In this document: in pieces, positions 13,611 through 45,225 of the stretch
How the letters are laid out: the number at the start of each line of letters is the position of its first letter
Position numbering within the stretch: position 1 is the stretch's first letter
Origin: a virus
Lineage: Duplodnaviria; Caudoviricetes
Length of the DNA stretch: 64,000 nt
Direction: 5' to 3' (one strand)
Virus record (IMG/VR): IMGVR_UViG_3300021400_000103
Made by a program: the position numbers and the translations under genes
Notes under the pieces: generated by a model
Seen by the model: the letters and a program-made list of their open reading frames with translations, nothing else
Databases searched by the model: none
Told to the model about the DNA's origin: nothing

Positions 13611-13634
13611 CTAATGAATAAAAGGAGAAATAAT

Positions 13635-14666
13635 ATGGGAAGACATATTATCAAACATAAGATCATAAGTGAAGAATCGTGTTCTAATATTTTACCAGAG
13701 AATAAGGAATTAATGGACGACTTTCTTCGTTATTTAAAATCTATTGATAGGTCACCAACAACAATTGAAGCATACACTTCAGACTTGAATATATTTTTTG
13801 TTTATAACTTAGAAAATAACAACAATAAAAGATTTCCAGATATTACAAAACGTGAATTTATTCGTTTCCAAGACCACGCACTTAACGAGTGGCAATGGAG
13901 TCCTAGGCGTTTACGCCGAGTAAAATCTGCAATCTCTTCTCTCTCCAATTATATTGAAAATGTATTAGATGAAGATCCTAAATATGCTAACTATAAGAGT
14001 TCTATTAGAAAAATAGAATCACCAGTTAACCAACCAGTATTAGATAAGACAATATTTACAAACGAAGAACTACAGAAATTATTGGATTATTTGGTATCTA
14101 AAAAACGTTATCGTCAAGCGGCGGTATTGTCATTGTGTATGAATTCTGGTAGACGTAGGAGTGAAATACCAAGGTTTAAGACGGAATATTTTACTGATGA
14201 TAATGTAATATTCGGTTCATTATGGAAGACACCGGAGAAAGTAAAAACTAAAGGTCGTGGTTCTAAGGGTAAACAAATACATCTATATGTGCTCAAAAAA
14301 CAGTTTGAGCCTTACCTTAAACTCTGGATGGATTACAGAAAAGAAAATGGCATAGAAAGTGAATGGTTATTCCCAAATATGAACGACTATTCTAAGCCAA
14401 TGAGTACCGAAACGATGCGCATGTGGGTAAAACCATTCAGCAGATTTCTCGGTAAAGATTTTTACTGGCATTCGTTACGGCATTACTTTACTACCGAATT
14501 AGTCAGAAATGATATTCCTGCTAACGTTATTAAAGAAATGATTAATTGGGAAACAACAGATATGGTAGACTTATATACCGACCTTTCATCTGATGATTTA
14601 TTTGGAAAATACTTTGATGAAAACGGAATAAAGAAAATACAATATAGATCCGTCGCTAACTTATAG
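13635..14666 (+). CDS. Tyrosine recombinase (XerC/D-like) inside the tail module
   Basis: SAM-like N-domain; catalytic set present: SGRRRSE (R), KTKG (K), HSLRH, NW, DLY (Y); RBS aaggag before ATG 13635. Confidence 0.9.
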   Translation: MGRHIIKHKIISEESCSNILPENKELMDDFLRYLKSIDRSPTTIEAYTSDLNIFFVYNLENNNNKRFPDITKREFIRFQDHALNEWQWSPRRLRRVKSAISSLSNYIENVLDEDPKYANYKSSIRKIESPVNQPVLDKTIFTNEELQKLLDYLVSKKRYRQAAVLSLCMNSGRRRSEIPRFKTEYFTDDNVIFGSLWKTPEKVKTKGRGSKGKQIHLYVLKKQFEPYLKLWMDYRKENGIESEWLFPNMNDYSKPMSTETMRMWVKPFSRFLGKDFYWHSLRHYFTTELVRNDIPANVIKEMINWETTDMVDLYTDLSSDDLFGKYFDENGIKKIQYRSVANL

Positions 14667-23748: not shown

Positions 23749-23851
23749 GTCTCCTGACATTTTAGGCTTATTTCGGTAATAAGTGGTATCTAATGGTATC
23801 TATTTCGGCGTAAAATGGGCGTAAATTGTCACCCAAATGGGCGTAAGTCTG

Positions 23852-23881
23852 TTGACAAGCATTTCTTCGTTATGTTATAGT
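23852..23881 (+). promoter_or_regulatory. Integrase promoter
   Basis: TTGACA-N18 with extended TGnTATAGT. Confidence 0.6.
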
Positions 23882-23902
23882 CACATTAGAGGAGGTGATA
23901 TA

Positions 23903-25066
23903 ATGAAGAAACTTGCAAAACTTCCAAGAGGAGAAGGCAGTTTTTCCCGTAGAGCGAATGGATCTCTGGAGTATAAAAAGTATGTTCATGTTAACAACGG
24001 CACTATCCGCACTGTCGTGTACGGTAAAACCGAACGTGAGTGCATGGAGAAGATGCGTGAAAAGGAAGCGGCCATAAAAGAGCGGAGTAAGTTCACCTCT
24101 GATCAGTTACTCGGCGAAGCTCTTATCGTATGGATTAACAAAGTTAAGAAACCTACATTAAAGAAGCAGTCCTATGACAGACTTATAGGTGCAGCCCGTC
24201 AGATTGGTAAGTCAGATATTGGCCGCCGGTACTATAGCAAGATCGACACCATGGAACTTCAGCACTACATATATCATCTTCTTGAGTTGAGGTATGCATG
24301 GGGTACGATCAAGAAATCATATGATCTGCTCCGGGCCTTCTATCGCTACATGTCTATAAAGGAACAGTTTCGTGATCCAATGGCGCTGGTTGTTATGCCA
24401 AGGAAAGACAACGTCAAGGTAGATAGTCGGCAGATAGAATGGTTTGAAGAGGAAGATATCCAGAGGTTTACCGAAGCCTGTGATGCAAGGTGGAATACTG
24501 GTCGACTAAAGAATAAATACGCCTATGCTATCGCCGCCAATATATACCTCGGATTACGTGGTGGGGAACTTCTCAGTTTAAAATGGAAGGATGTAGACTT
24601 CGACAGAAACACAATATACGTATCAAAGACTTTGATTGAATACCGGGATAAGAACGGTAAGACTAAATTTGAAGTGCAGGAATCTACAAAGAGAGATAAG
24701 AACAGATATGTACCGATGAATTCAAAGGCCAAATCCTTCATGTTAAAGCATCTGGAGGAGAGTGAGTTTACGGATCCAGAAGACTTTGTGATATCAACGT
24801 CTAACCGTAGAACTACCACATTGAAGAATCTGTCGGACACTATCCGCAATATAGAGGAAGAAGCCGACACAACGGTACGTACTTACAATACGCATATCTT
24901 GCGTCATACATGCGCATCGCTGTACTTCAGAGCTGGCGTACCGGTCGAGACTATTTGTGCTATCCTCGGTAATACTCGTGAAGTATGTGAAAAAACATAT
25001 GTCCACTTCGCAGAGGAACAGCTCAAGAACGCTGCATCCAAAATTGTGCCGATTATTGAATTGTAG
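23903..25066 (+). CDS. int: Phage integrase (tyrosine recombinase with N-terminal arm-binding domain)
   Basis: RGEGS..R N-terminus, GLRGGELL.LKW.DVDF, HILRHT, LGN..TY; RBS ggagg before ATG 23903. Confidence 0.92.
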   Translation: MKKLAKLPRGEGSFSRRANGSLEYKKYVHVNNGTIRTVVYGKTERECMEKMREKEAAIKERSKFTSDQLLGEALIVWINKVKKPTLKKQSYDRLIGAARQIGKSDIGRRYYSKIDTMELQHYIYHLLELRYAWGTIKKSYDLLRAFYRYMSIKEQFRDPMALVVMPRKDNVKVDSRQIEWFEEEDIQRFTEACDARWNTGRLKNKYAYAIAANIYLGLRGGELLSLKWKDVDFDRNTIYVSKTLIEYRDKNGKTKFEVQESTKRDKNRYVPMNSKAKSFMLKHLEESEFTDPEDFVISTSNRRTTTLKNLSDTIRNIEEEADTTVRTYNTHILRHTCASLYFRAGVPVETICAILGNTREVCEKTYVHFAEEQLKNAASKIVPIIEL

Positions 25067-25518: not shown

Positions 25519-25686
25519 TCAGTTTATTGAATCCATATAAGCTTTAAACTTGTCCTCCGGGATGATATACTGCCTCCCAACCTTAACCTTCGGAAAATCC
25601 GGCTGGTTAATCATTTCATATATCTTCTTCATGCTAAAACCTAAAATGGATTGAATATCCTTTGGTTTGAGGTATTTAATCTCCAT
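25519..25686 (-). CDS. xis: Excisionase-like HTH protein (55 aa, not in ORF track)
   Basis: MEIKYLKPKDIQSILGFSMKKIYEMINQPDFPKVKVGRQYIIPEDKFKAYMDSIN. Confidence 0.8.
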   Translation of the reverse strand: MEIKYLKPKDIQSILGFSMKKIYEMINQPDFPKVKVGRQYIIPEDKFKAYMDSIN

Positions 25687-26443
25687 ACGCATTTCCTTTC
25701 AAATAATTATTTTTCTTTATTACAGCATCCAGCAGATCGTGGTTTACACCGCACTCTTCCGAAATATATGCCAGCGCTGCAATGTCTTTAGGTAAACAAC
25801 TCCCGCCATACCCACGATTATCTTCATATACGAATGTGTGGCTACGGCTAATGCGCGGATCTTTTAACCATACTTCCCGCAGTTCGTCGTAATCAACTCC
25901 GCACTTCTTTGCTATATCATACATCTCATTGCAGAATGTAACCTTAGTTGCATAGAAGCAATTCTCCATGTATTTAGCCAGTTCTGCGGTAGATGCATCC
26001 GTCTTAACAATCTCAACGTCTGCCGTGTACACCTTCTGATATTCTTTAACAACCTCTGCTGTATCCTCGGCGGATCCACCAAGCGTGATCCATGTGCGAT
26101 TCCTAAGATCCGCAAGTGGGTGATGATGTGTCTCGCCATAATACTCCGGTTGAAACACTATGCGCTTACCCAGCTCTTTCTTCTTACGTTCTGTATACCC
26201 TACTGGCACAGTGCTTCGAATTACTATTACCTTAGTAGTACACCAGTTAAGCACTTCGTCCACCGCAGTTGTGTCACAGTGTCCGTCGTCTGCCATCGGA
26301 GTAGGAACACACACAAATGCTATGTCGCATTCATTGATTTGTTCACGCGTGACATATCCTTTATATTTATCATATACAACTGCATCTTCGAACAGTTTAT
26401 TCATAGCTCCGCCAACATGTCCATTACCGATTATTCCTACCAT
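25676..26443 (-). CDS. UDP-glucose/GDP-mannose dehydrogenase family protein (lacks C-terminal domain)
   Basis: GNGHVG Rossmann motif, FVCVPTP, RSTVP.G, AELAKY.EN, GYGGSCLPKD catalytic Cys. Confidence 0.88.
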   Translation of the reverse strand: MVGIIGNGHVGGAMNKLFEDAVVYDKYKGYVTREQINECDIAFVCVPTPMADDGHCDTTAVDEVLNWCTTKVIVIRSTVPVGYTERKKKELGKRIVFQPEYYGETHHHPLADLRNRTWITLGGSAEDTAEVVKEYQKVYTADVEIVKTDASTAELAKYMENCFYATKVTFCNEMYDIAKKCGVDYDELREVWLKDPRISRSHTFVYEDNRGYGGSCLPKDIAALAYISEECGVNHDLLDAVIKKNNYLKGNAYGD

Positions 26444-26451
26444 ATCCCCTC

Positions 26452-27333
26452 CTAAGCGTAATATGTTACTATCATTCCGGTTGGTGTAACCGTGGTCTTT
26501 GTGGGTTTCGTCTTATCATATTCTATACGCTCTGCTTCAAAATTACGGCAGAACAGTTTAACCACCTTTGGGTTAAAGAAGTAATTCATTTCTCCTATAA
26601 TTTCGAACTTCTTGGGATGTTTATTCATACTCTTTAACCACACTTTGATCTCAGGATCCTTGTCTGAATAGATTAATTTATTTCCTCTAGCGACAATGAT
26701 TCTTTGGAACGGATAAAACGGATCTGTAACATTTACCCATCCAGACTTCCACGTACCCTCGAAGTAGTGGATGCCAATGGTTTTGGGCGTAATCAGATCC
26801 AATTTCCTAGTTGGGAAATACTCTTCGCCAAGTATCGTGAAGCCGTCATCGTAGGTTGTTAACTGTGATCCATGTATGTCATACATCTTGTACATGTTCT
26901 TAATAAACTCTTTATGAAGTATTGCCCCAGGAACAAGTCCTTCTTTTGCTCTCTTATAAAGCTCTGGAAAATATTTGCAGTCGCATCCGAGTACGCCTGA
27001 GTCCGGCTGACTTGGTTCAAATTCCGTAATAAATCCATGGTTATACTGAAGCAGTTCGTCAAGTGGTTTTATGAGTTGTACGTCTGTATCAAGGTAGATA
27101 CCGCTTGATTTACTAAGGAATTCAAGTCTTGCAGCGTTGCTCACGTAAGACCAGTTTTTATGCTCATATGCGGTCTTTGAATACGGAGTTGAGTTAACGT
27201 CAAAGTTATCTTCGTTGATTTCCACAATTTCATAGTCCGGGCATATCCTCTTCCATGACTCAATACACTTTTTGTTGAGTTCGGACATTTCTCCATGCCC
27301 AAACCAACAGTAGAAAATCCGCTTATCTATCAT
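26452..27333 (-). CDS. Glycosyltransferase, GT32-like (DXD)
   Basis: I.YCWFG..CIESW....PDYEI, GIYLDTDV, IHYF.GTW. Confidence 0.85.
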   Translation of the reverse strand: MIDKRIFYCWFGHGEMSELNKKCIESWKRICPDYEIVEINEDNFDVNSTPYSKTAYEHKNWSYVSNAARLEFLSKSSGIYLDTDVQLIKPLDELLQYNHGFITEFEPSQPDSGVLGCDCKYFPELYKRAKEGLVPGAILHKEFIKNMYKMYDIHGSQLTTYDDGFTILGEEYFPTRKLDLITPKTIGIHYFEGTWKSGWVNVTDPFYPFQRIIVARGNKLIYSDKDPEIKVWLKSMNKHPKKFEIIGEMNYFFNPKVVKLFCRNFEAERIEYDKTKPTKTTVTPTGMIVTYYA

Positions 27334-33311: not shown

Positions 33312-36300
33312 TTAGTTTATGGCTTTTACGTAGTCATTTATCCACCATTCAAATACGCCGGGTACAGGAACCCAATCTTCTTCTCCCTCTCCGCCCTTTC
33401 TGACTTTCTGTTGCTTTTTCCACTTTTTGATCATAAGAATATCGCCGTCTTCAAATGGTGTGTCACGGAAGGATTTTAGCACTGTTCTATCATTCGGCTT
33501 ACGACTCTTGTGTACCTTCAGCTGACAGGTTGTACCATCTTTGATTCGGTATGCCGTGAATACTGGCGAATACGTAGCGTTCAGTCTAGTAACTAATATA
33601 AGGTTGGCATTAGCATTTGGATCTATATATTCTATGTAGCCAAGATATTCCTGCTGATTCTTTACAATAGATTGTGTAGAACATGGCAATCCATTGTATT
33701 TTAGTTCGCGTAACAAATTGTAGGAGTCTAGTTCTTTATATTCAGCCTCAGATACTTTAGTCGCAAATCGTTGTTTAATGTCTTCAGGTATTTCAGCCAG
33801 CTTAAACAGTTTTTCATAGTTATAACCATTAAATTCTCCGGTTTTTTTATACTTCTTACACTGTTCTACTATCTCCGCAAACTTCTGCTGGCGAGTTGGT
33901 TCTTGTATTGCCGCAGTAATAGCATCTATATTGACCTCTTTCACTGCAGCCGGTTTATATTCTGCACAATACTTCTCAACAAATGGGTAATCCAGCCCTA
34001 ATTTTGAAGCTTTAACGGATGTTTTAAATCCTTTCGCCTTATCAAATAATTCATTAAATCGATCACGCTTGTATAGGAGTTCGTTGATTTCTCCGAAGTC
34101 AGAAAAGTAGTTCAGTTTGATAAGGATGTCAAGTTGGCGAGAGTTACATGTGGTCTTCATAGCAATGTCTTTAAGTAAGTCTATGAAATTGGTATATGCA
34201 CGTTCTTGTGAAAGTGTATATAATTGTTCAGATACTTCGTCATTCAGAAACTTAATAGAACCAATACCCTTTATGATTAGATGTTTTTCCTTGTTGTATG
34301 AATACTTGGCTCTTGACATTCCAAACTTAATATTACTCAGTTGGATATTAAAATAATCAAGTTCTTTCTTCAGTTTTGCCGTACGCTCTGCATCATCAGA
34401 ATAATTATTAAGGCATACTGTCATATATTCATACGGATAATTAACCTTGAGATATGCTCCATAGCACATATCAAGCGACGTTGCAGCAGCATGAGGACTT
34501 GCAAATCCATACGCCATACAACCTTGAATCATCTTCCATGTCTCATCAAACATATCTTCAGATCCCGTCTGAATCTTCCAATTATCTCTCAATCTCGTTT
34601 CAAGTTTTGCAAAGTCATCCGGTTTAATCTTCTTCTTTGAAATTTTTTTGATCAATCCTATTGATTCAGCAGGGGTAACACCAAGCCACTCAAAGTATTG
34701 CATAAGATTTTCCTGGAATAGTATATAGTGTTGTGTCTGTTTAAGGACTTTGTCTAGATCGTCAGATCCAGTGGAATAATTCTCATGATTTAAAAACTTC
34801 TGCCTCCAAGCATCAAACGATGGTCTTATCGCCGCTGCTATCAACGCACCATCCTCGAATGACCTAATCCCATATTGTTTAGCCTGTTGCATCCCATTAT
34901 CGGAATCAACCTGGTTAAGGGTACATGTGATTCCATTTTTAAATAAATCCCACACTCTTTGATCGTCCTTGATAGCGTCAAGTAAATCATGCGCATCCAT
35001 AATCGGAATGCCTATTTCTTCAAATGTTTCATGAATTAATTTCCACACGCTAACAATCAGATAGTCATTCTTCAATACCTTAAACAGATCGGCTTCTCCG
35101 GATGTAATCATAACACAGTAAAAATCACCAAACTTTGCAACTCCATACTCATACATAAGGTCTTTATCGCTTAAAACATGGGCGCATGGATGCACTGATC
35201 CACTGACGATTGTTCCTACATAATGTTCCGCCTCTTCTATTAACGGTTTCCACTTTTTATCTTCTCTGTATTGGTCGAGATTTTTAGCAACATCATTGAA
35301 TTCGTCAAATTGTAATCCGTGGCTTCTACATACGTTTCTAAATGCCTCTCCTTCTTGCATGGTACCATAGGCCACCATAGGAAAACAGCCATTATCTCCG
35401 AGCAATTCTTTTGATGCTTTGACAAATGGCTCTTGAGCCTCAACATTGAAATCAATATCTGGCAAGGCTCTATTTTCAATCAACCTCGCTGTACTTGCAA
35501 ATCTGTCAGGGAATATCGGTAGATTGATCTTAAATCTATCGAGCTGAGTCATGCCAAGAAGTTTGTTCGTGTAGAAAGAAGCGCAACTTCCACGCCCGCC
35601 TCTTGTTAATATACCGCCATATTTATTTACCGCCAAGTCAACGTTTCGAGTATTAAATAAGAAATAGTCACAAGTATGTATTTGTTCGTTGGTGTCCTTA
35701 ATTATTTGGAGTTCATAGTTAATCCCGTCGATATACTTAGGTAAATCCTCATCGGATATATGTTCTTTAACTTTAGTTTCCTCAAACTTCTTCCACACTA
35801 AGTCTTCGAGCATCTTCATCCTATCATCGAGAGGAATATCCGGATAAATATTTGGCATTTTAATTTCATAGTCAAGCTGAATTTCTTCTATATTATCAAA
35901 TATTAAAGTATTATTGATAGCATCTTCAATCTGCTGCTCACTGAGAACTCCTTGCTTTTCAAATCTTTCAAAGAAAGTATTGTAATCAGGAAAGTCTAAT
36001 ATAAATTCATCTTCTGCTACAAAGTATGCGTCCGGCTTACCCTCTAATTGTCTCTTGCCAACCATTAAATCATGACGCTCCTTGGCTTGCCAAGGGTAAA
36101 TATAATGAGAGTCGTTAGCAGCTATAAGCTTAAGTCCAGTTGATTCTGATAACGCTATCGCTTTTTTGTTAATATCTCGCTGAATATCAAAGGCGTGGTT
36201 CTGAACCTCTAAAAACACGCTATCCCAAAAATGGTTGATAATCGGCATGAGTATTTTCTCAATACCATCCTCGTCTCTGAGAAGTCCCGCACAACATGCA

Positions 36301-36716
36301 CTTGTAATATAGAGATCATCCTTGTCAAAATCCATCAAGTATTCCAAGCTCCAACGGGGTTTGTAATAAAAGCCATTCATATGCGCAAGACTATTATAGT
36401 AGTTACATTTCTTACGTGCTTTATCAGTACGCGGAATAATCATTATGTGATAGTTGGATTTATCCTTGAGTTCTGGGTTATTATCAACTACAATATAACC
36501 TTCGAGTCCAGGAAGGCAACGAAGGTTGTTATTTTTACATAAATCAAACGCCTCAAAAATATCCCCAAAGACACCGTGTTCAGTGGTGAAGTAGTTGGTG
36601 TGACCAAGTTCCAGACACCTATCTATATACTCTTTTTGTTTAACATTACTATCCCCTACGCCACCAAACAGAGAAGAAATATGACTATGTTTATGATAAT
36701 TATTATACCTGTTCAT
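33312..36716 (-). CDS. dnaE: DNA polymerase III alpha subunit
   Basis: PHP domain (HKHS, TEHG, NDSHY), GRGS, PDIDF catalytic motif, HPCA. Confidence 0.95.
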   Translation of the reverse strand: MNRYNNYHKHSHISSLFGGVGDSNVKQKEYIDRCLELGHTNYFTTEHGVFGDIFEAFDLCKNNNLRCLPGLEGYIVVDNNPELKDKSNYHIMIIPRTDKARKKCNYYNSLAHMNGFYYKPRWSLEYLMDFDKDDLYITSACCAGLLRDEDGIEKILMPIINHFWDSVFLEVQNHAFDIQRDINKKAIALSESTGLKLIAANDSHYIYPWQAKERHDLMVGKRQLEGKPDAYFVAEDEFILDFPDYNTFFERFEKQGVLSEQQIEDAINNTLIFDNIEEIQLDYEIKMPNIYPDIPLDDRMKMLEDLVWKKFEETKVKEHISDEDLPKYIDGINYELQIIKDTNEQIHTCDYFLFNTRNVDLAVNKYGGILTRGGRGSCASFYTNKLLGMTQLDRFKINLPIFPDRFASTARLIENRALPDIDFNVEAQEPFVKASKELLGDNGCFPMVAYGTMQEGEAFRNVCRSHGLQFDEFNDVAKNLDQYREDKKWKPLIEEAEHYVGTIVSGSVHPCAHVLSDKDLMYEYGVAKFGDFYCVMITSGEADLFKVLKNDYLIVSVWKLIHETFEEIGIPIMDAHDLLDAIKDDQRVWDLFKNGITCTLNQVDSDNGMQQAKQYGIRSFEDGALIAAAIRPSFDAWRQKFLNHENYSTGSDDLDKVLKQTQHYILFQENLMQYFEWLGVTPAESIGLIKKISKKKIKPDDFAKLETRLRDNWKIQTGSEDMFDETWKMIQGCMAYGFASPHAAATSLDMCYGAYLKVNYPYEYMTVCLNNYSDDAERTAKLKKELDYFNIQLSNIKFGMSRAKYSYNKEKHLIIKGIGSIKFLNDEVSEQLYTLSQERAYTNFIDLLKDIAMKTTCNSRQLDILIKLNYFSDFGEINELLYKRDRFNELFDKAKGFKTSVKASKLGLDYPFVEKYCAEYKPAAVKEVNIDAITAAIQEPTRQQKFAEIVEQCKKYKKTGEFNGYNYEKLFKLAEIPEDIKQRFATKVSEAEYKELDSYNLLRELKYNGLPCSTQSIVKNQQEYLGYIEYIDPNANANLILVTRLNATYSPVFTAYRIKDGTTCQLKVHKSRKPNDRTVLKSFRDTPFEDGDILMIKKWKKQQKVRKGGEGEEDWVPVPGVFEWWINDYVKAIN

Positions 36717-37452
36717 ATGCAAAATCTCCAAATATCTTGTTTTCCATATTCATTCTTGCCATTTTTGCTTCTTCAATTGTATCAAATGAGCCTAAATAAA
36801 TAGTCTTCCCATTCACCATTATTCTCGCAGTATATTTATCACCGTTTGTTTGAAGACTAACTCCCTTAACTCCTAGTTTATTATTTACATTACATGGTCT
36901 ATTTATTCCATTTGTTTGTTTATTGGCTATTCTTAAATTATCTTTTCTATTGTCTAATCTATTTTGATTTTTATGATCAATTATGTCGCCTACATCGGGA
37001 CGTAATATCAACCTATGTTGTCTTATATTTAATCCATTTTTTTGATGCGCTACCGCATATCCTTTATCATTTTCAAACCAACAATAATTCTTTATTAATT
37101 CATAATCTTCTTTGTCAAAATAAAAACATTTATTAGTGTTAGAGGTATAACCAACCCCATATTCCTGTGATAAATCGTATTTATTATATTTTTTATGAGC
37201 TTTAGATGTTTGTTCTTTTTGATAACACCCACAAGATTTCGTATGATCTTTATTTAATCCCGTGGCGCTAATGATAACATAATTACCACAATCACATCTG
37301 CATACCCAACGGGAATTTTTCGTAGTATTACTATATGTTCGATATAATACTGTCAGCCGACCATGGCGTTCACCAGATCTATCCTTATAATTTGCACCTA
37401 TTTTATTTGGTTTATATTCTGGGTATTTTTCTTTCAGTTCATCTTCTGTCAT
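36703..37452 (-). CDS. Free-standing HNH endonuclease with AP2 domain
   Basis: W.CRCDCG..SCGC, DHKN.NRLDNR..NLR, C-terminal AP2 (GVS..YTARI..LG.FDT.EEA). Confidence 0.85.
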   Translation of the reverse strand: MTEDELKEKYPEYKPNKIGANYKDRSGERHGRLTVLYRTYSNTTKNSRWVCRCDCGNYVIISATGLNKDHTKSCGCYQKEQTSKAHKKYNKYDLSQEYGVGYTSNTNKCFYFDKEDYELIKNYCWFENDKGYAVAHQKNGLNIRQHRLILRPDVGDIIDHKNQNRLDNRKDNLRIANKQTNGINRPCNVNNKLGVKGVSLQTNGDKYTARIMVNGKTIYLGSFDTIEEAKMARMNMENKIFGDFAYEQV

Positions 37453-38631
37453 ATAACTGTCTCCTATCACTCTCCCAACTTTTTCACTACTTCTTCCGTT
37501 ATCTCCGGCAACTCCATCCATGCGAGCGGTTTTATCTCATAATGTCCTAAGTCACTATCGTAGTCGTACCATCCACTTTGATGTTTTCCTTTATAACGAT
37601 AAAAATCGTATTTATCTGTTCGATACAAATCTGTAGAAAAATAGCACACAGTGAACCACAAATTTTCTTTCTTAATTTTCCCATTAAAGCTCTTTAAGCA
37701 CAGGTAACATCCAGCCTTTTTCGGTAGATCACCGTCTTTGCAAAAATGAAATACACTCATGACCAACACTCCTCTAACTAAACTCACCACTAACCCAGTC
37801 TACCGGATAGTCCGGATCCCTAGAATAATCCATTTCGTCAATACCATAGTAAGGATTTACAACTTCGAGTCTCTTTGCTGCTTCTCTGCGTGTCTTATCA
37901 TATTCATCGTGAATAAACGGAATCCAAATGTCGGCTTCGTCTGGCTCACAGCTAATCGTGTGTAGAGTCTTTTTGGGAATGTATTCATCGTTTTTATCAG
38001 CAATGAATTTGTCAAAATTACTTATATCATATACCCATTTCAAAGGCTCAGGTGTCCTATGAGCATGATCAAGTATTTTCTTTTTATATTGTCCAATCGT
38101 AAATTTTTCGCCGTACTCGTCTTCAATCTCTATCTCGTCTACATGTTCTTTACAAAAATCAAGCAGCCCTTGAAATGTTGTAAACGCTTTATGGCGCTGA
38201 AACAGAGGTCTCCAACCACAACTCAACTTGTTAAGATGGATTTCGTAGTAAAAATCCGGCACATCGTGAAGCTCATATTCCTTGCTTACATACTCAGGAT
38301 ATTTACCACCATAATCCATTTTTTCAGCAAAATACTCGTGTGCTATGTCTTTATTCTTTGTTGTAAGATAATAGTTAGTTCCCATTGCTAATACTCCTTA
38401 GGAAAATTCGTGATATTCCCGCCACCAGGCATATCATCGTCATCGTCGTCATTCAGCAACTCACACATGAAATCATCATCAAAATCTCCTGGCTTCATTA
38501 TGATCATGTCGCCACTCAATGTCCTGCAAACCTCATAACCACCAGCTCTTAAGGCATCTATCACACCCTCCAAATCACTTAGAAGGTGTGTGTAGAACTG
38601 TCCGATCTGGTGGTATCCTGTTTCTTCGTTT

Positions 38632-39720
38632 TCATAATACATATTTTTCTATGCTCCAATCTTCATCTCTTACCTGGAAGGCGTCACCTATCTCAATAAT
38701 CTCAGGATGATTATGTAAGGCGACTTTAATTGCATACTTGTCAACCTCGGATGCATAATACTTAATATTTGTAAAACCCATTTTCTTCAAGCAGTATAAT
38801 CCCGTTGCGATGCCGTCATACATAGACAATACTTCTAACGGTGTGTCTCTCGGTATGTTTTTGAGTCCTTGCTCCAAAATATATATAATTACATCGGCAG
38901 TCCATCCATTACCAATACCTTTTAACCTTTGAGTATCGCTAACTCCAGGTGCTTTTGTATAATCATCTGGGAGCGTTTGTAATCTCTCCGCTTCGTTAAC
39001 TGTAAGTTTCCTTATTATGTAATGGCCGTCTGGCATATTACACGGGAATCTGCCAACTTTAATATCTATATAACCATCTTTAATATTATAAATTTTCCCT
39101 TTATCAACTACTAATCCTTCCAGCTCTTGTGGTAGCGGAGTGAAATATAATCCAGTTTTAGCACCTTGCCCACCACCGTTAGCTGTGAGATTTATAGATT
39201 TACCATAACAACTATAAACTCTATGGGCTTGAGCGGTAGAACCTATATCTCCTACCCTAACTGGCTCAAACACAATACAAGTCTGATGTTTCTTAAAATA
39301 ATCTCTTGTGGTACCTGCGTGATCAGTACAAAGACAATAAGCTTTTTCTTTTTCGACTACGCTGTTCTCAAGTTGAAGAATATCTTTTAACAAGATTCCT
39401 TTTTCTTGTGGTTGAGGACATTCCCAATTATGACAGTATATCCTTCTGCGTCTTTGAGCAGATAACAAAGCTGAATCTATATGAGTCAGCGGATATCCCA
39501 ACTCTTCTGCTATTTGATCTTTAATTGCTTGTGAAGCCGACTCATTATTCTCATATAAGAAAAAATCTGGTTTAAACTTATCTTTTGCTATCAAGTAATT
39601 TTTAAACAGTTCCCACCCCATTCCTGATGCTTCTGTTTCTCTATTCTTCTTTTGGGCTATTGACCAAAAGGTACATGGGCTGCCTCCAAGTAATATCCTT
39701 AAAGTTTTGTTTTGATTCAA
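38632..39720 (-). CDS. DNA (cytosine-5) methyltransferase, circularly permuted
   Basis: Motif IV GGSPC at the N-terminus, then VI EN, VIII Q.R.R, IX, X GNG, and motifs I-III (SMYDGI.TG, SEVD, GD) at the C-terminus. Confidence 0.9.
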   Translation of the reverse strand: MNQNKTLRILLGGSPCTFWSIAQKKNRETEASGMGWELFKNYLIAKDKFKPDFFLYENNESASQAIKDQIAEELGYPLTHIDSALLSAQRRRRIYCHNWECPQPQEKGILLKDILQLENSVVEKEKAYCLCTDHAGTTRDYFKKHQTCIVFEPVRVGDIGSTAQAHRVYSCYGKSINLTANGGGQGAKTGLYFTPLPQELEGLVVDKGKIYNIKDGYIDIKVGRFPCNMPDGHYIIRKLTVNEAERLQTLPDDYTKAPGVSDTQRLKGIGNGWTADVIIYILEQGLKNIPRDTPLEVLSMYDGIATGLYCLKKMGFTNIKYYASEVDKYAIKVALHNHPEIIEIGDAFQVRDEDWSIEKYVL

Positions 39721-42592
39721 TGTTATTCAGAAGGAAACCATGGTTTAATGTGCGCACAACCTCTTTCCTCCTTACTTAAGTTTTTATTTAATGTACAATA
39801 TTTTGTATTTTAATAACGAATTTTGTAGTTAATCTGCAATATTTGTTACTTTATTGACCTGATGAAAACAAAATTTCATTAGTTCATGAGATCGGCGACA
39901 TCCGCCTTACTCCTCCGCTTCTTCCTTCTTCATATAATATGCTGTCGGACAATCCTTGTTCTTCTTCGGAATCGACAGTCTTCCAAGAATATAACCGTCC
40001 TTCAGCATCTTTTCCAAATGCTCTGCAAATTCCTGCTGTGACTCATACTCAACATTCGTCTGTGTTTTGATGTTCATTGTTTTCGTCCTCCTCGATGATC
40101 ATATTTACTTTATAAAATACAAGGCCAATAAGTGCCAAATATACGGTTAAAAGTAAGTTATTAACATGTGCCATCACAAAATTGAAACGAGTTATTTCAT
40201 TCGTATATATAGATAAAATCAGTCCTGCTATACTCGAAATGAGCATCAGTATTGTCAATATTAATACTATTTTTTGATGTATTGTTTTCATTCGACCACC
40301 TCTTTTTTCTTTCTGGACTTCTTTAGTCGCTCCGCAGCCAATTTCTTCTGTTCGTCCGTCATCACCCTAGACTTGATTTCACCACGGAAGCTAACCAACT
40401 TCTTAGGGCATCTATATATCTTGGAAGCCACACTACCATCAGTGAACTTCTCAATCTTAACCAGTTCCCAATCTTTAGACGACTTAACACGCTTGTCTAA
40501 CTTAGTCATCACTGTGGTGTCAGACGTCCATATCTCTGCATAGATATCTTCTCGTCTATAATTAATCACAGTTTCCTGTTCTTCGAGTCCTACATTCATC
40601 GTGTTCCACCTCCAAAAATCTGACCGAATATACCGCCAAACGCATTATAAATGTCATTATCCCCATACATGTCGCTCGACCTTGCTGGCTCTACTACTTT
40701 GTGTTTCCCATCCGGATTGCGGTATATTTTGTAACCCATACGTTTTAGATCATCACATTCTTTAACATACTTATCTATTTCGAACTCGTACAATCTATCC
40801 AGTTCTGCAACAATCACGTCAGGACGACTCACGATTACCACCTCTTCCTACTCTGCATTTTGTTCTTAACCATTATTACAACTACGATAATTGCAACTAT
40901 TGCTATTGGAATCCATGTAGGTGCCAGCACCCACCACCAAGACCAATTAATAACCTTTGTTAACTTCAGCACGATAAATACTATTGTTAATATGCCAAAG
41001 AAGGAAATATCTATATTCACATTACTCTTCATTGCCAACCTCCCAGTCGTATGCGATTGATTTACAACATTCCAAAATCATATTATTAAGATCATCATAC
41101 GTAAGTCTATGACCACATTCAGCGTAAACACCACGATTAGAATGCTTATACCACCACACTTTTAGATCTTTATAAGTAAAGTTTGGATGACTATTATCAT
41201 TCCAGTCATATGCAGCCACCGAAAATGTTGGGTTGCTATAAGACACTCCAGTATTGTTGAATGGGGATGGCATTTCTTTCTTATGTTTATTAAAGTTAAC
41301 ACGGTCTAACTCAGCCTTTATGGAATCCAGAGCAGCCTGGATTAATCTCGTATCGTTATATCTATATTGAACTACCATTCCAACTCTTCCTCCAATCTCC
41401 ACTCAATTCTCATATTCCGTATTTGATCCATTTAGCCTGTCGCCTTCTTATCTTTTCTACCGTGTCTGAAATGTCGATTACTTCTTGGGTTTTTCCACCA
41501 TCTTTCAAATAACTAACGGTGTAACTGTTTGGAATATGAAATTCGCCGTTTTCATCCGGCTCATCACACAGTTCTTCATCATAGCCTTTCTTAATAACCT
41601 CTATATCATCATTTGGTTTCCACCTTTTCCATCGTTTTACGTAACAGTCAAAACACTCCGGAGTTATCCATGATTTACCAACCATCGGTGCTTCTCGCCC
41701 ACACCAATAGCATACGTTCTGAGAGATGTGCTCATATTTGTTTATGATCCGATGTACCTTGTTAGACGATCCGCCACAATATAGGCGAGCTTGACCGTAT
41801 TTTTCTTTAATCTGAAGTATAGTGAAGTCCTTCTGACCTGATTCATTAATGGCAGCGCCAAGCTCATCCATATACATCTGCCCAAAAGCTTTATCCCATC
41901 CAGGACTCCACCCCCATTCTATCCATGTATAGTCATAGTTTTTGGGGATCTTACCTCGCCAATCTCTCGGCATAAGCCAGTAATACTTTTTAATCAGACG
42001 CTTGTTCCGCATCTGAAGTTTTTTCTTCTGCTTCCTCTTCTTCTTTGTCATGGTTTGTATTCCCCCATTGTTCGTAGTATTTAAACCATCCTAACGCCCA
42101 CAGATCAGCGTAGTATTTTTCAATATCTTTTAATTCCCATCCGTTATAACAAGTAGAATCTACCGTCTGTCCATTTTTATGTGTAAACTGAACCTCTGCC
42201 TCATACCTTGGAGCTGTCTCAAATCCTTTTCTTTCATACCGTGAAAAATCCCATCGATAAATATTAATAAAGTAACGTTTCCCATAATCGTCACTCACAC
42301 ATTTTTGAAACAAATCCGTACAACACTCAATGTATGATGGAGGATCCCATCTTTTATACCCAGCGTCCAACAATTCTTGATTTGTCATATGTGCCCCCCT
42401 ATCCTATATATCTATATTGACAGTTTAGACAGTAGTATCTACGTTTTGGCGGATCTGTGGCAAATATAATTGAACAGTCCACATGGACACCTGCTCCACA
42501 TTTGGGACATATAAACAATTCCTTGTCCTTGTAAATATCAATATTGTCAGCCTCACCACTACTAAAAAACTCTTCTTTTGTTGGCAACTTAT

Positions 42593-44409: not shown

Positions 44410-45225
44410 TTAACCTCCAACTGGTCGATATATGCAGGAAAGTCGATGGTCACAAAGTATATTACAGAAAAATGACTTTGAATTATCCGGCGCCCACAGA
44501 ACTTCCTGTTCAATCTGATGAATCGTATCTATCGCCCATTGTTTTGTTTCTTCGAGTTTATCCTGTTCAAATGGTAGTTTGAGTGTCTTTTGGTCTCTGA
44601 ACATGTTCCAGGTTAGCCAATCAACCTTTCCATACTCCTCCAAGACAGGAATACTATAGATATATTCCTGCTTTACATAATGATCAAACTGCTGCTGATT
44701 GGATTTAGAAACACTACCATCTTTAAGATATTTGAAACTAGACGATTTTTGATCCAAGATAATAATTTCACCATTTTGTTTATCTCTTAACAGGGCATCT
44801 ATATATCCTTTAAATCTATACTCTCCTACCTTAAAGTGATATTCCTTTTCCACACCCAGCACTTCGTACCTGTCGAAATCAAAAGATATATTATTAAAAT
44901 AATCCAACCCCTGATCATAAGCCTTTTGTCCTAAGTCGGCGTATCTATTCGGCGGAAAATCACATGTCACATAATCTCTGTAATGATCCTGGTACCACTG
45001 AGCTGCAGTAAAGATGTCTAATTCGCCATTTAAAAATAGCTCAATACATTTATGACAAAGTGTTCCAAACTGAGCATACGCATTTTCTTCACCACTTTGT
45101 TTCTCAAGGTACGATAAATACCAAGCATAATTGCATGATCCGTAGGCATTGACCCTACTAAAACTCCACTCCATCTCATCCAACTTTTTTCTTATTTCTT
45201 CTGGTGTTAATTCCCACTCTTGCAT
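44410..45225 (-). CDS. PD-(D/E)XK nuclease (Cas4/AddB-like exonuclease)
   Basis: WSFS..C, FGT..H, G.ID..D.K, C-terminal C..LC....C. Confidence 0.8.
   Translation of the reverse strand: MQEWELTPEEIRKKLDEMEWSFSRVNAYGSCNYAWYLSYLEKQSGEENAYAQFGTLCHKCIELFLNGELDIFTAAQWYQDHYRDYVTCDFPPNRYADLGQKAYDQGLDYFNNISFDFDRYEVLGVEKEYHFKVGEYRFKGYIDALLRDKQNGEIIILDQKSSSFKYLKDGSVSKSNQQQFDHYVKQEYIYSIPVLEEYGKVDWLTWNMFRDQKTLKLPFEQDKLEETKQWAIDTIHQIEQEVLWAPDNSKSFFCNILCDHRLSCIYRPVGG

Follow-up and report, generated by a model that had tools for sequence, protein, structure and literature searches.

The DNA analysed here is a stretch of the IMG/VR virus record IMGVR_UViG_3300021400_000103 (Caudoviricetes); the whole of it, 64,000 nucleotides (nt), is referred to as the window. 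On its minus strand it encodes a protein of 362 amino acids, the window methylase, which is a cytosine-5 DNA methyltransferase (C5-MTase) whose conserved motifs come in a circularly permuted order. The C5-MTases are a textbook family of fixed motif order, which runs from motif I at the N-terminal end to motif X at the C-terminal end. This canonical topology is not found in the window methylase, where the order is IV-VI-VIII, target-recognition domain (TRD), IX-X, a linker, and then I-II-III. Taken together, the results make it very probable that the protein is an active permuted C5-MTase, that the permutation arose a single time in phages or prophages of gut Clostridia, and that the enzyme is an orphan with a protective role.

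Motif Order and Conserved Residues

The open reading frame (ORF) at 38632..39720 starts with TTG and ends with TGA at 38632-38634, and another in-frame TGA is found 9 nt (three codons) upstream of the TTG. The Pfam profile PF00145 matches residues 7-284 only, using profile positions 62-321 of 324 (65.4 bits, cut-off 22). Since the match begins at profile position 62, the protein starts at motif IV. A phmmer search against the PDB places DNMT3A residues 78-173 (motifs IV-VIII) on query residues 9-99 and DNMT3A 235-276 (IX-X) on 240-281, while DNMT3A 6-66, which holds motifs I-III, falls on query residues 292-351. The chain stops 14 residues past motif III, where canonical enzymes run on into motif IV. 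It is a single-domain protein with no Pfam match besides PF00145.

A sequence-only reading of the same DNA had proposed the order IV-X followed by I-III. The ORF is exact at its coordinates, and the PF00145, DNMT3A and structural alignments all agree with that order. The same reading had noted that no fragment of motif I lies upstream. When the window was searched in six frames by tblastn and by hidden Markov models (HMMs) of the motif blocks, no motif-I fragment was found elsewhere; each block occurs once, inside this ORF, and there is therefore no stray piece of a second methylase to account for.

Conservation was scored across 40 homologs of 60-80% identity (set A1). In motif IV the residues G12, G13, S14, P15 and C16 are at least 90% conserved, as is E57 in motif VI, where N58 and N59 are invariant. 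In the TRD module Q164, R167, V168, Y169, S170, G173, G183, G184, T189, G190, L191 and Y192 are invariant, and so are R237, K238, L239, E243, R246, L247, Q248, T249 and P251 in motif IX, and N271, G272, I278 and L282 in motif X. The cofactor-binding part shows the same picture: V297, L298, S299, D302 and G303 in motif I, Y321 and E325 in motif II, and G345, A347 and F348 in motif III are invariant, while D346 is at least 90% conserved. Every residue of the catalytic and cofactor sets is thus either invariant or conserved to at least 90%, which indicates purifying selection.

The hallmarks of the PF00145 superfamily are all present, namely the Pro-Cys dipeptide, the ENV-type glutamate, QxRxR, motifs I, II and III, and the GNGW of motif X. 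In its fold, and in the residues for catalysis and cofactor binding, the protein agrees with a normal C5-MTase. Because the catalytic residues are invariant, it seems unlikely that the window methylase is catalytically inactive. Judged by sequence alone, a substrate other than DNA, such as RNA, is conceivable as well.

Predicted Structure

An AlphaFold2 model built on the 40-sequence alignment reached a predicted template modelling score (pTM) of 0.81, with predicted local distance difference test values (pLDDT) of 87-97 in the core. It shows all the Rossmann strands in the permuted order, and the predicted structure has a class I Rossmann-like fold with a separate small TRD domain. When the structures are aligned sequentially, DNMT3A/B, M.HhaI, M.HaeIII and M.MpeI give Z scores of about 13-14.5, for model residues 1..293 only. 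The best structural matches are NtDRM and DRM2, which align across residues 47..362 with Z scores of 15.5-16.9, and NtDRM is also ranked first by Foldseek.

Authenticity of the Locus

A permuted order could be an artefact, caused either by mis-assembly or by the tail and the head of two adjacent methylase genes being read as one ORF. Nothing besides the rarity of the arrangement speaks for this, and it is considered extremely improbable. An 18.4-kb contig made by a second assembler from the probable source run is identical. Goat and bovine gut runs from other studies contain variants of 90-99% identity that bridge the leader and start, the joint between motifs X and I, and the stop codon together with the next gene; the X-to-I linker is bridged by contigs of an independent goat gut run (X4 record 9, 38752-38987). 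Hundreds of diverged relatives are likewise encoded by one ORF, with stop codons lying a few codons ahead of motif IV and past motif III, and the window holds no further methylase fragment. Mis-assembly had been named beforehand as a finding that would overturn the permutation; with the identical second contig, the independent gut runs and the diverged relatives that have the same single ORF, it is ruled out.

The Permuted Family and Its Origin

Thousands of database proteins match the window methylase, and the best 120 are mostly colinear with it over 97% of the query. The best relatives begin with ..LLIGGSPCT.. and end with ..VLSMYDGIGTG..YEIDKYA..GDAF. Relatives were sorted by means of three block HMMs (IV-VIII, IX-X and I-III). 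Full-length permuted proteins make up 212 of the 271 relatives collected, with 29 canonical proteins and two fused doubles, and they account for 92 of the 150 best-ranked representatives of clusters formed at 50% identity. Canonical relatives included, 831 such clusters match at E values up to 1e-30.

At least 588 IMG/VR stretches that match the family patterns encode a relative, on contigs of 20-215 kb. Among the 75 loci scored there about 55 are permuted in one ORF and 5 are canonical, while the rest have no detectable motif IV. The GTDB species genomes contain 174 stretches encoding a relative, and 78 of the 80 loci scored hold a single permuted ORF. These carriers are almost all Clostridia (Oscillospiraceae, Lachnospiraceae, Ruminococcus, Acutalibacteraceae and Christensenellaceae), and cultured isolates are found among them, such as Butyricicoccus pullicaecorum DSM 23266, Flavonifractor sp. 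An82, Criibacterium bergeronii CCRI-22567 and Acutalibacter intestini.

An unrooted tree was calculated from 212 concatenated block columns, with the blocks set in a common order. One split, with a support of 0.995, parts 74 permuted units from 33 canonical or tandem units, and the number of Fitch changes is one. This indicates, on the block sequences, that the permutation would have arisen once. Since the canonical order is universal outside the clade and a single split is seen, the permuted state would be the derived one. The sequence-only reading had taken the enzyme to represent a distinct permutation class, separate from the permutants that begin at motif IX/X. This is supported, as the order is kept in a large family of single origin and the permutants of the published survey discussed below are all broken in the variable region.

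Among the canonical relatives two proteins, P0138 (962 aa) and P0252 (618 aa), are in-frame fused double C5-MTases in which motifs I-X are followed by I-X again. Such doubles are the type of intermediate that the permutation-by-duplication model predicts; they illustrate the route, not the ancestor.

Several relatives, both canonical (P0202, P0204, P0218 and P0270) and permuted (P0142, P0170 and P0172), contain inteins (Hint domains, in part with LAGLIDADG) that sit immediately ahead of the catalytic Cys of Pro-Cys. In such methylases the nucleophilic Cys would double as the +1 residue of the intein. The N-extein of the permuted hosts is only about nine residues long (M-K-L-L-I-G-G-S-P).

Translation Start and mRNA Leader

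In most family members an ATG preceded by a GGAGG Shine-Dalgarno sequence (SD) is found 5-6 codons ahead of GGSPC, so that the proteins start M(I)K(L)LIGGSPC; the native chain therefore begins at strand β4. The subclade to which the window methylase belongs is different, with a TTG start and no adjacent SD; its single SD is 45 nt further upstream. In the public databases the same protein is called as P0001, which is 329 aa long, begins at Met34 and lacks the catalytic Cys. P0002, which is 80% identical, matches the window methylase from residue 1 and reads MDKNKTLRILLGGSPC. Since residues 1-33 are kept as protein sequence, translation must begin at the TTG or at a non-standard codon close by.

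If translation did start at Met34, or if the permuted fold bound DNA or SAM (S-adenosylmethionine) without methylating, the protein made in vivo would be catalytically dead, and it might then act as a regulator or decoy. The start of P0001 fits such a protein, as does the TTG, which has no adjacent SD and whose distant SD is predicted to be locked in a hairpin. However, residues 7-33, with GGSPC and TxWSIAQ, are kept at the protein level in all relatives, P0002 matching from its first residue, and most members have their clear ATG and SD just ahead of motif IV. As the catalytic residues are also invariant or nearly so, a dead protein is regarded as very unlikely, and an active enzyme that begins ahead of motif IV is preferred.

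In members of the type of L046, L018, L053 (about 4000) and L058 (about 4000) there is no ATG, GTG or TTG between the upstream stop codon and GGSPC. These have ATA (IKKILIGGSPC) or ATC at the proper distance after a good SD, and family members of this kind probably use rare start codons. PHROG 17284, a family of 245 positions, matches residues 80-319 of the window methylase and looks like a family of truncated calls of the Met34 type. Public gene calls shorten these methylases or label them hypothetical, and PHROG 17284 is listed with 'unknown function', which bears on annotation.

The distant SD is part of an mRNA leader containing two perfect palindromes. The SD, AAGGAGG, within AGGAGGAAA (39764-39772), is predicted to pair with UUUCCUUCU (39729-39737). 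The palindromes, which this pairing spans, are TGTGCGCACA (39749-39758) and AAACCATGGTTT (39735-39746), and the TTG follows 8 nt downstream. The locus L005 has the same leader layout with other palindromes, TTGTGGCCACAA and AAATCCGGATTT, and no second copy of the leader is found in the window. A variant at 39731 (U to C on the RNA; runs X4 and X5) changes a G-U pair of the SD stem to G-C. The family leaders are enriched in perfect palindromes of at least 10 bp: approximately 25 occur in 60 loci, where 0.09 would be expected per 130 nt.

Behind the strong SD there is also a GTG ORF of 38 codons in the -1 frame, which is partly conserved in L005. A programmed frameshift or an upstream ORF was considered for this region and dropped without proof, because an RNA leader with its SD pairing and palindromes accounts better for the conservation. 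The sequence-only reading had further pointed to an exact 18-bp inverted repeat upstream of the gene. The repeat is present, but it does not seem to be a meaningful feature: the window has 26 inverted repeats of the 6-6-6 type against 20.6 in shuffled sequences, and nothing resembling a terminator is found at this site; the genuine feature upstream of the gene is the leader with its two palindromes. The positions of all features are given in Table 1.

Table 1. Features of the methylase locus, with their positions in the window.
Feature	Position	Strand	Basis
Complete coding sequence, permuted C5 DNA methyltransferase	38632..39720	-	Homologs colinear over 97-99% of length
Motif IV, RILLGGSPC, residues 8-16; strand β4 and catalytic Cys16 loop at the extreme N-terminus	39673..39699	-	Aligns with DNMT3A 78-86
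Motif VI, FFLYENN, residues 53-59; Glu57 is the ENV-type glutamate	39544..39564	-	DNMT3A alignment, conservation
Motif VIII, SAQRRRRIY, residues 87-95	39436..39462	-	Q89, R91, R93 and Y95 invariant
HhaI-type target-recognition module, residues 151-193 (FEPVRVGDIGSTAQAHRVYS..NLTANGGGQGAKTGLYF)	39142..39270	-	43-residue M.HhaI match
Motif IX, residues 236-251, IRKLTVNEAERLQTLP	38968..39015	-	Aligns with DNMT3A 235-250; conservation
Motif X, residues 267-282, KGIGNGWTADVIIYIL	38875..38922	-	Invariant residues; helix 275-285 in model
X-to-I linker, residues 283-295; joins canonical C- and N-termini	38836..38874	-	DRM chains align straight across
Motif I, VLSMYDGIATG, residues 297-307; DNMT3-type FxGxG, SAM binding	38800..38832	-	Aligns with DNMT3A VLSLFDGIATG
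Motif II, YYASEVD, residues 321-327 (Glu325)	38740..38760	-	Aligns with DNMT3A YIASEV
Motif III, IEIGDAF, residues 342-348	38677..38697	-	Residue conservation
mRNA leader predicted to sequester the SD, two perfect palindromes	39729..39773	-	RNA fold prediction
18-bp inverted repeat ATGAAA-N6-TTTCAT, judged no feature	39862..39879	.	Chance-level count

Target Recognition

The variable region comprises approximately residues 100-232 and holds one TRD module. Over its 43 residues this module aligns ungapped with M.HhaI 224-266, with an E value of 1.7e-4 when only the TRD region is used. Its conserved Gln164 and Arg167 correspond to Gln237 and Arg240 of HhaI. As the TRD is HhaI-like, a target site of GCGC type might be guessed at, though weakly. 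GCGC is not avoided in the window (observed/expected 0.80). By comparison CGCG is strongly avoided, with 20 sites observed against 73 expected (0.27), and so is GGCC, with 28 against 87 (0.32); CTAG is also low, and CCGG is near expectation. This pattern of site avoidance is too weak for assigning a specificity to the methylase. The core of a leader palindrome (GCGC in TGTGCGCACA) was considered as the target site as well. This is unsupported, because the cores differ among close relatives while the TRD module is nearly invariant.

The multispecific C5-MTases of the SPR and phi3T type from Bacillus phages contain several tandem TRD modules in the variable region; the window methylase, with its single HhaI-type module, is not of this kind. 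Some longer permuted members (P0034, P0048, P0114 and L002 2498-4174, the last from phage nd4, WRQ08028, annotated 'hypothetical protein') have two to three tandem HhaI-type modules of the pattern ..QA.RVYS..GKS..L.a.GGG.G.KTGLY... By analogy with SPR and phi3T this suggests that the members with several modules could be multispecific.

Genomic Context and Probable Role

The window is part of a large gut phage of about 150 kb; the longest contig carrying the window methylase protein is 150,841 bp. The genes in the window include tail genes and genes for a Pol III alpha-like polymerase, NrdD, primase, DnaB, SSB, ThyX, dUTPase, a dNMP kinase, an RNA ligase and HNH endonucleases. In the replication module, the methylase is surrounded by small genes without family assignment. 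The 40 window proteins scanned with Pfam, PHROGs and PADLOC, which cover the flanks and the replication module, gave no match to a restriction, TET or further methylase family.

Because no restriction enzyme or TET gene is detected nearby, the window methylase is best read as an orphan that would protect the phage DNA from host restriction. The sequence-only reading had also called it an orphan, which fits the Pfam, PHROGs and PADLOC results for the neighbours, and had ascribed to it an anti-restriction role, which is an inference.

The gene might instead belong to a phage-borne restriction-modification system, or carry out the first step of a hypermodification in which 5-methylcytosine is oxidised or glycosylated. 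Phage clusters are known in which C5-MTases supply TET-like oxygenases and glycosyltransferases (bioRxiv 10.1101/2023.12.21.572611), the window does encode a DXD glycosyltransferase with a UDP-glucose dehydrogenase-like gene (25676-27333), and several neighbours of the methylase have no family assignment. On the other hand, the genes flanking the methylase contain no Tet_JBP, restriction or other nuclease family. The only PD-(D/E)XK protein is 5 kb off, and the glycosyltransferase is 11 kb off, behind the NrdD and dUTPase genes. Members of the family are moreover spread over numerous phage backbones that are unrelated to each other (contigs of 20-215 kb), as would be expected of a self-sufficient gene. 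Such a partnered role is considered unlikely, and an orphan enzyme is preferred.

Some of the neighbouring genes deserve mention in their own right. The PD-(D/E)XK protein (44410-45225) is placed among replication genes. The glycosyltransferase (Gly_transf_sug) is on the minus strand, adjoins the UDP-glucose/GDP-mannose dehydrogenase-like gene and is found near the dUTPase and NrdD genes; this pair could serve the glycosylation of DNA or of the surface. A homing-endonuclease-like gene with HNH and AP2 domains (36703-37521, minus strand) separates the Pol III alpha-like gene (33312-36731) from the methylase module, and its end overlaps the start of the polymerase gene by 29 nt. Two tyrosine-integrase-like genes (13614-14666 and 23837-25066, plus strand) are located in or next to the tail and structural region.

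Proposed Mechanism and Evolution

The window methylase is proposed to be an active, monomer-sized cytosine-5 methyltransferase of the DNMT3-like phage clade in circularly permuted form. The chain would begin with strand β4 and the Cys16 loop, continue through Glu57, Gln89/Arg91/Arg93, the HhaI-type module, motifs IX-X and a linker of about 13 residues, and end with the SAM-binding half of the Rossmann fold (D302-G303, Glu325 and Asp346), which places the new termini in the loop between motifs III and IV. The chemistry would be the normal one, with the base flipped out, C6 attacked by the Cys and the methyl group supplied by SAM.

In the phages or prophages of gut Clostridia, the permutation would most simply have come about by an in-frame tandem duplication after which both ends were lost, and the permuted family would then have radiated from this single origin. 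Most likely, the enzyme marks phage DNA after replication and so protects it from being cut by host Type II restriction enzymes. Its expression is probably held low by the TTG start and the leader that sequesters the SD.

Several points weigh against this proposal. Enzymatic activity is a prediction for every family member, the window methylase included. The TTG has no SD of its own, and initiation at Met34, as in the public call, would drop the catalytic Cys. Model confidence is low in the TRD, where the pLDDT falls below 50 at residues 133-189. A restriction partner may be hidden among the small neighbours without family matches, of which there are five, since restriction enzymes are hard to detect by sequence. 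The 212 columns of the tree come from the 150 highest-ranking hits obtained with a permuted query, and the HMMs were made from permuted sequences. Finally, the tandem doubles P0138 and P0252 lie inside the canonical clade and are not sister to the permuted clade. They are therefore not direct ancestors, and a role as direct intermediates was rejected, as the block tree puts them apart from the permuted proteins.

The family offers a natural scaffold in which the catalytic loop lies about 10 residues from the N-terminus, and this bears on the design of split enzymes and of targeted methylation. It also bears on tests of the permutation-by-duplication model, as fused double enzymes exist among the relatives, and on how the methylomes and the restriction evasion of gut Clostridia phages are read.

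Comparison with Known Enzymes

The canonical DNMT3-like phage C5-MTases, for instance gp038 of Escherichia phage vB_EcoM_PHB05 (YP_009984406.1), belong to the same sequence clade and are 33-36% identical to the window methylase over both pieces. Canonical relatives are also found in rV5-like, Flavobacterium, Roseobacter and Pseudoalteromonas phages. Like the window methylase they are phage-borne and apparently orphan, and they share with it a motif I of the VLSLFDG type, GGSPC, ENV/ENN, QNRQR and RKLT..E..RLQ..GNGW. They differ in having the order I-X, and all of them are found on the other side of the single split in the tree. M.HhaI, which recognises GCGC, is similar in its catalytic domain (Z about 14) and differs in its canonical order, in belonging to a restriction-modification system and in a motif I that is not of the DNMT3 type.

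The plant DRM methyltransferases are broken between motifs V and VI, which gives the order VI-X, I-V. Of DRM2 and NtDRM 213-229 residues can be aligned with the window methylase at 23-26% identity; both groups are DNMT3-related and permuted, and their X-to-I linkers differ little in length (query 236-317, chain 174-253). However, motifs IV and V are placed at opposite ends of the chains. They occupy residues 8-50 of the window methylase and are thus N-terminal there, and residues 1-46 of the model do not align with DRM. The DRM proteins are eukaryotic and have N-terminal UBA domains, whereas the window methylase is phage-encoded and has none. DRM is held to stem from Dnmt3 by duplication and circular permutation within plants (PMC3227630). 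It is a long shot that a tandem or permuted DNMT3-like gene of the phage type, with motif X already fused to I, was the kind of ancestor from which plant DRM came. If this were true, the permuted clade of Clostridia phages would be an evolutionary relative of the rearranged eukaryotic enzymes and not only a parallel to them. A further idea, independent of this one, is that, since the break lies inside the Rossmann fold, the C-terminal SAM lobe might swap between chains; the resulting dimer would be obligate and methylate a palindromic site on both strands, as the DRM and DNMT3 dimers do.

The one systematic survey that was found lists 27 natural permuted C5-MTases from REBASE, all permuted in the variable region as in M.BssHII (Slaska-Kiss et al., 2018; PMC5944983). 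In these 'type H' enzymes, which include M.BssHII, M.Alw26I, M2.Eco31I, M.Esp3I and M2.BsaI, motif X is also joined to motif I (Slaska-Kiss et al., 2018). Their break in the variable region puts IX-X before I-VIII, whereas the window methylase has IV-VIII ahead of the TRD and IX-X and is broken within the Rossmann-fold domain, at III/IV. They also belong to Type IIS restriction-modification systems, and the window methylase is apparently a phage orphan. The papers searched describe no natural permutation type that breaks at III/IV, and such a break is new relative to them because the permutants of the REBASE survey are all variable-region ones and DRM breaks at V/VI. A natural permutant of the order IV-X/I-III was not described anywhere in the full-text literature searched, REBASE itself not being covered. 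An earlier cataloguing of the class had been named as a refutation; no such entry turned up within that literature.

Permuted C5-MTases have been engineered as well, and ten topologies of M.MpeI and M.SssI showed activity, the permutants with termini at II/III being as active as the wild type (Slaska-Kiss et al., 2018). They demonstrate that the large domain of a C5-MTase can accept new termini in many places. These enzymes are man-made, while the family of the window methylase is natural and broken at III/IV rather than II/III. The same study remarked that other types of permutation than that in the variable region, which keeps both domains whole, seem not to occur in nature (Slaska-Kiss et al., 2018). 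A natural family broken at III/IV contradicts this generalisation.

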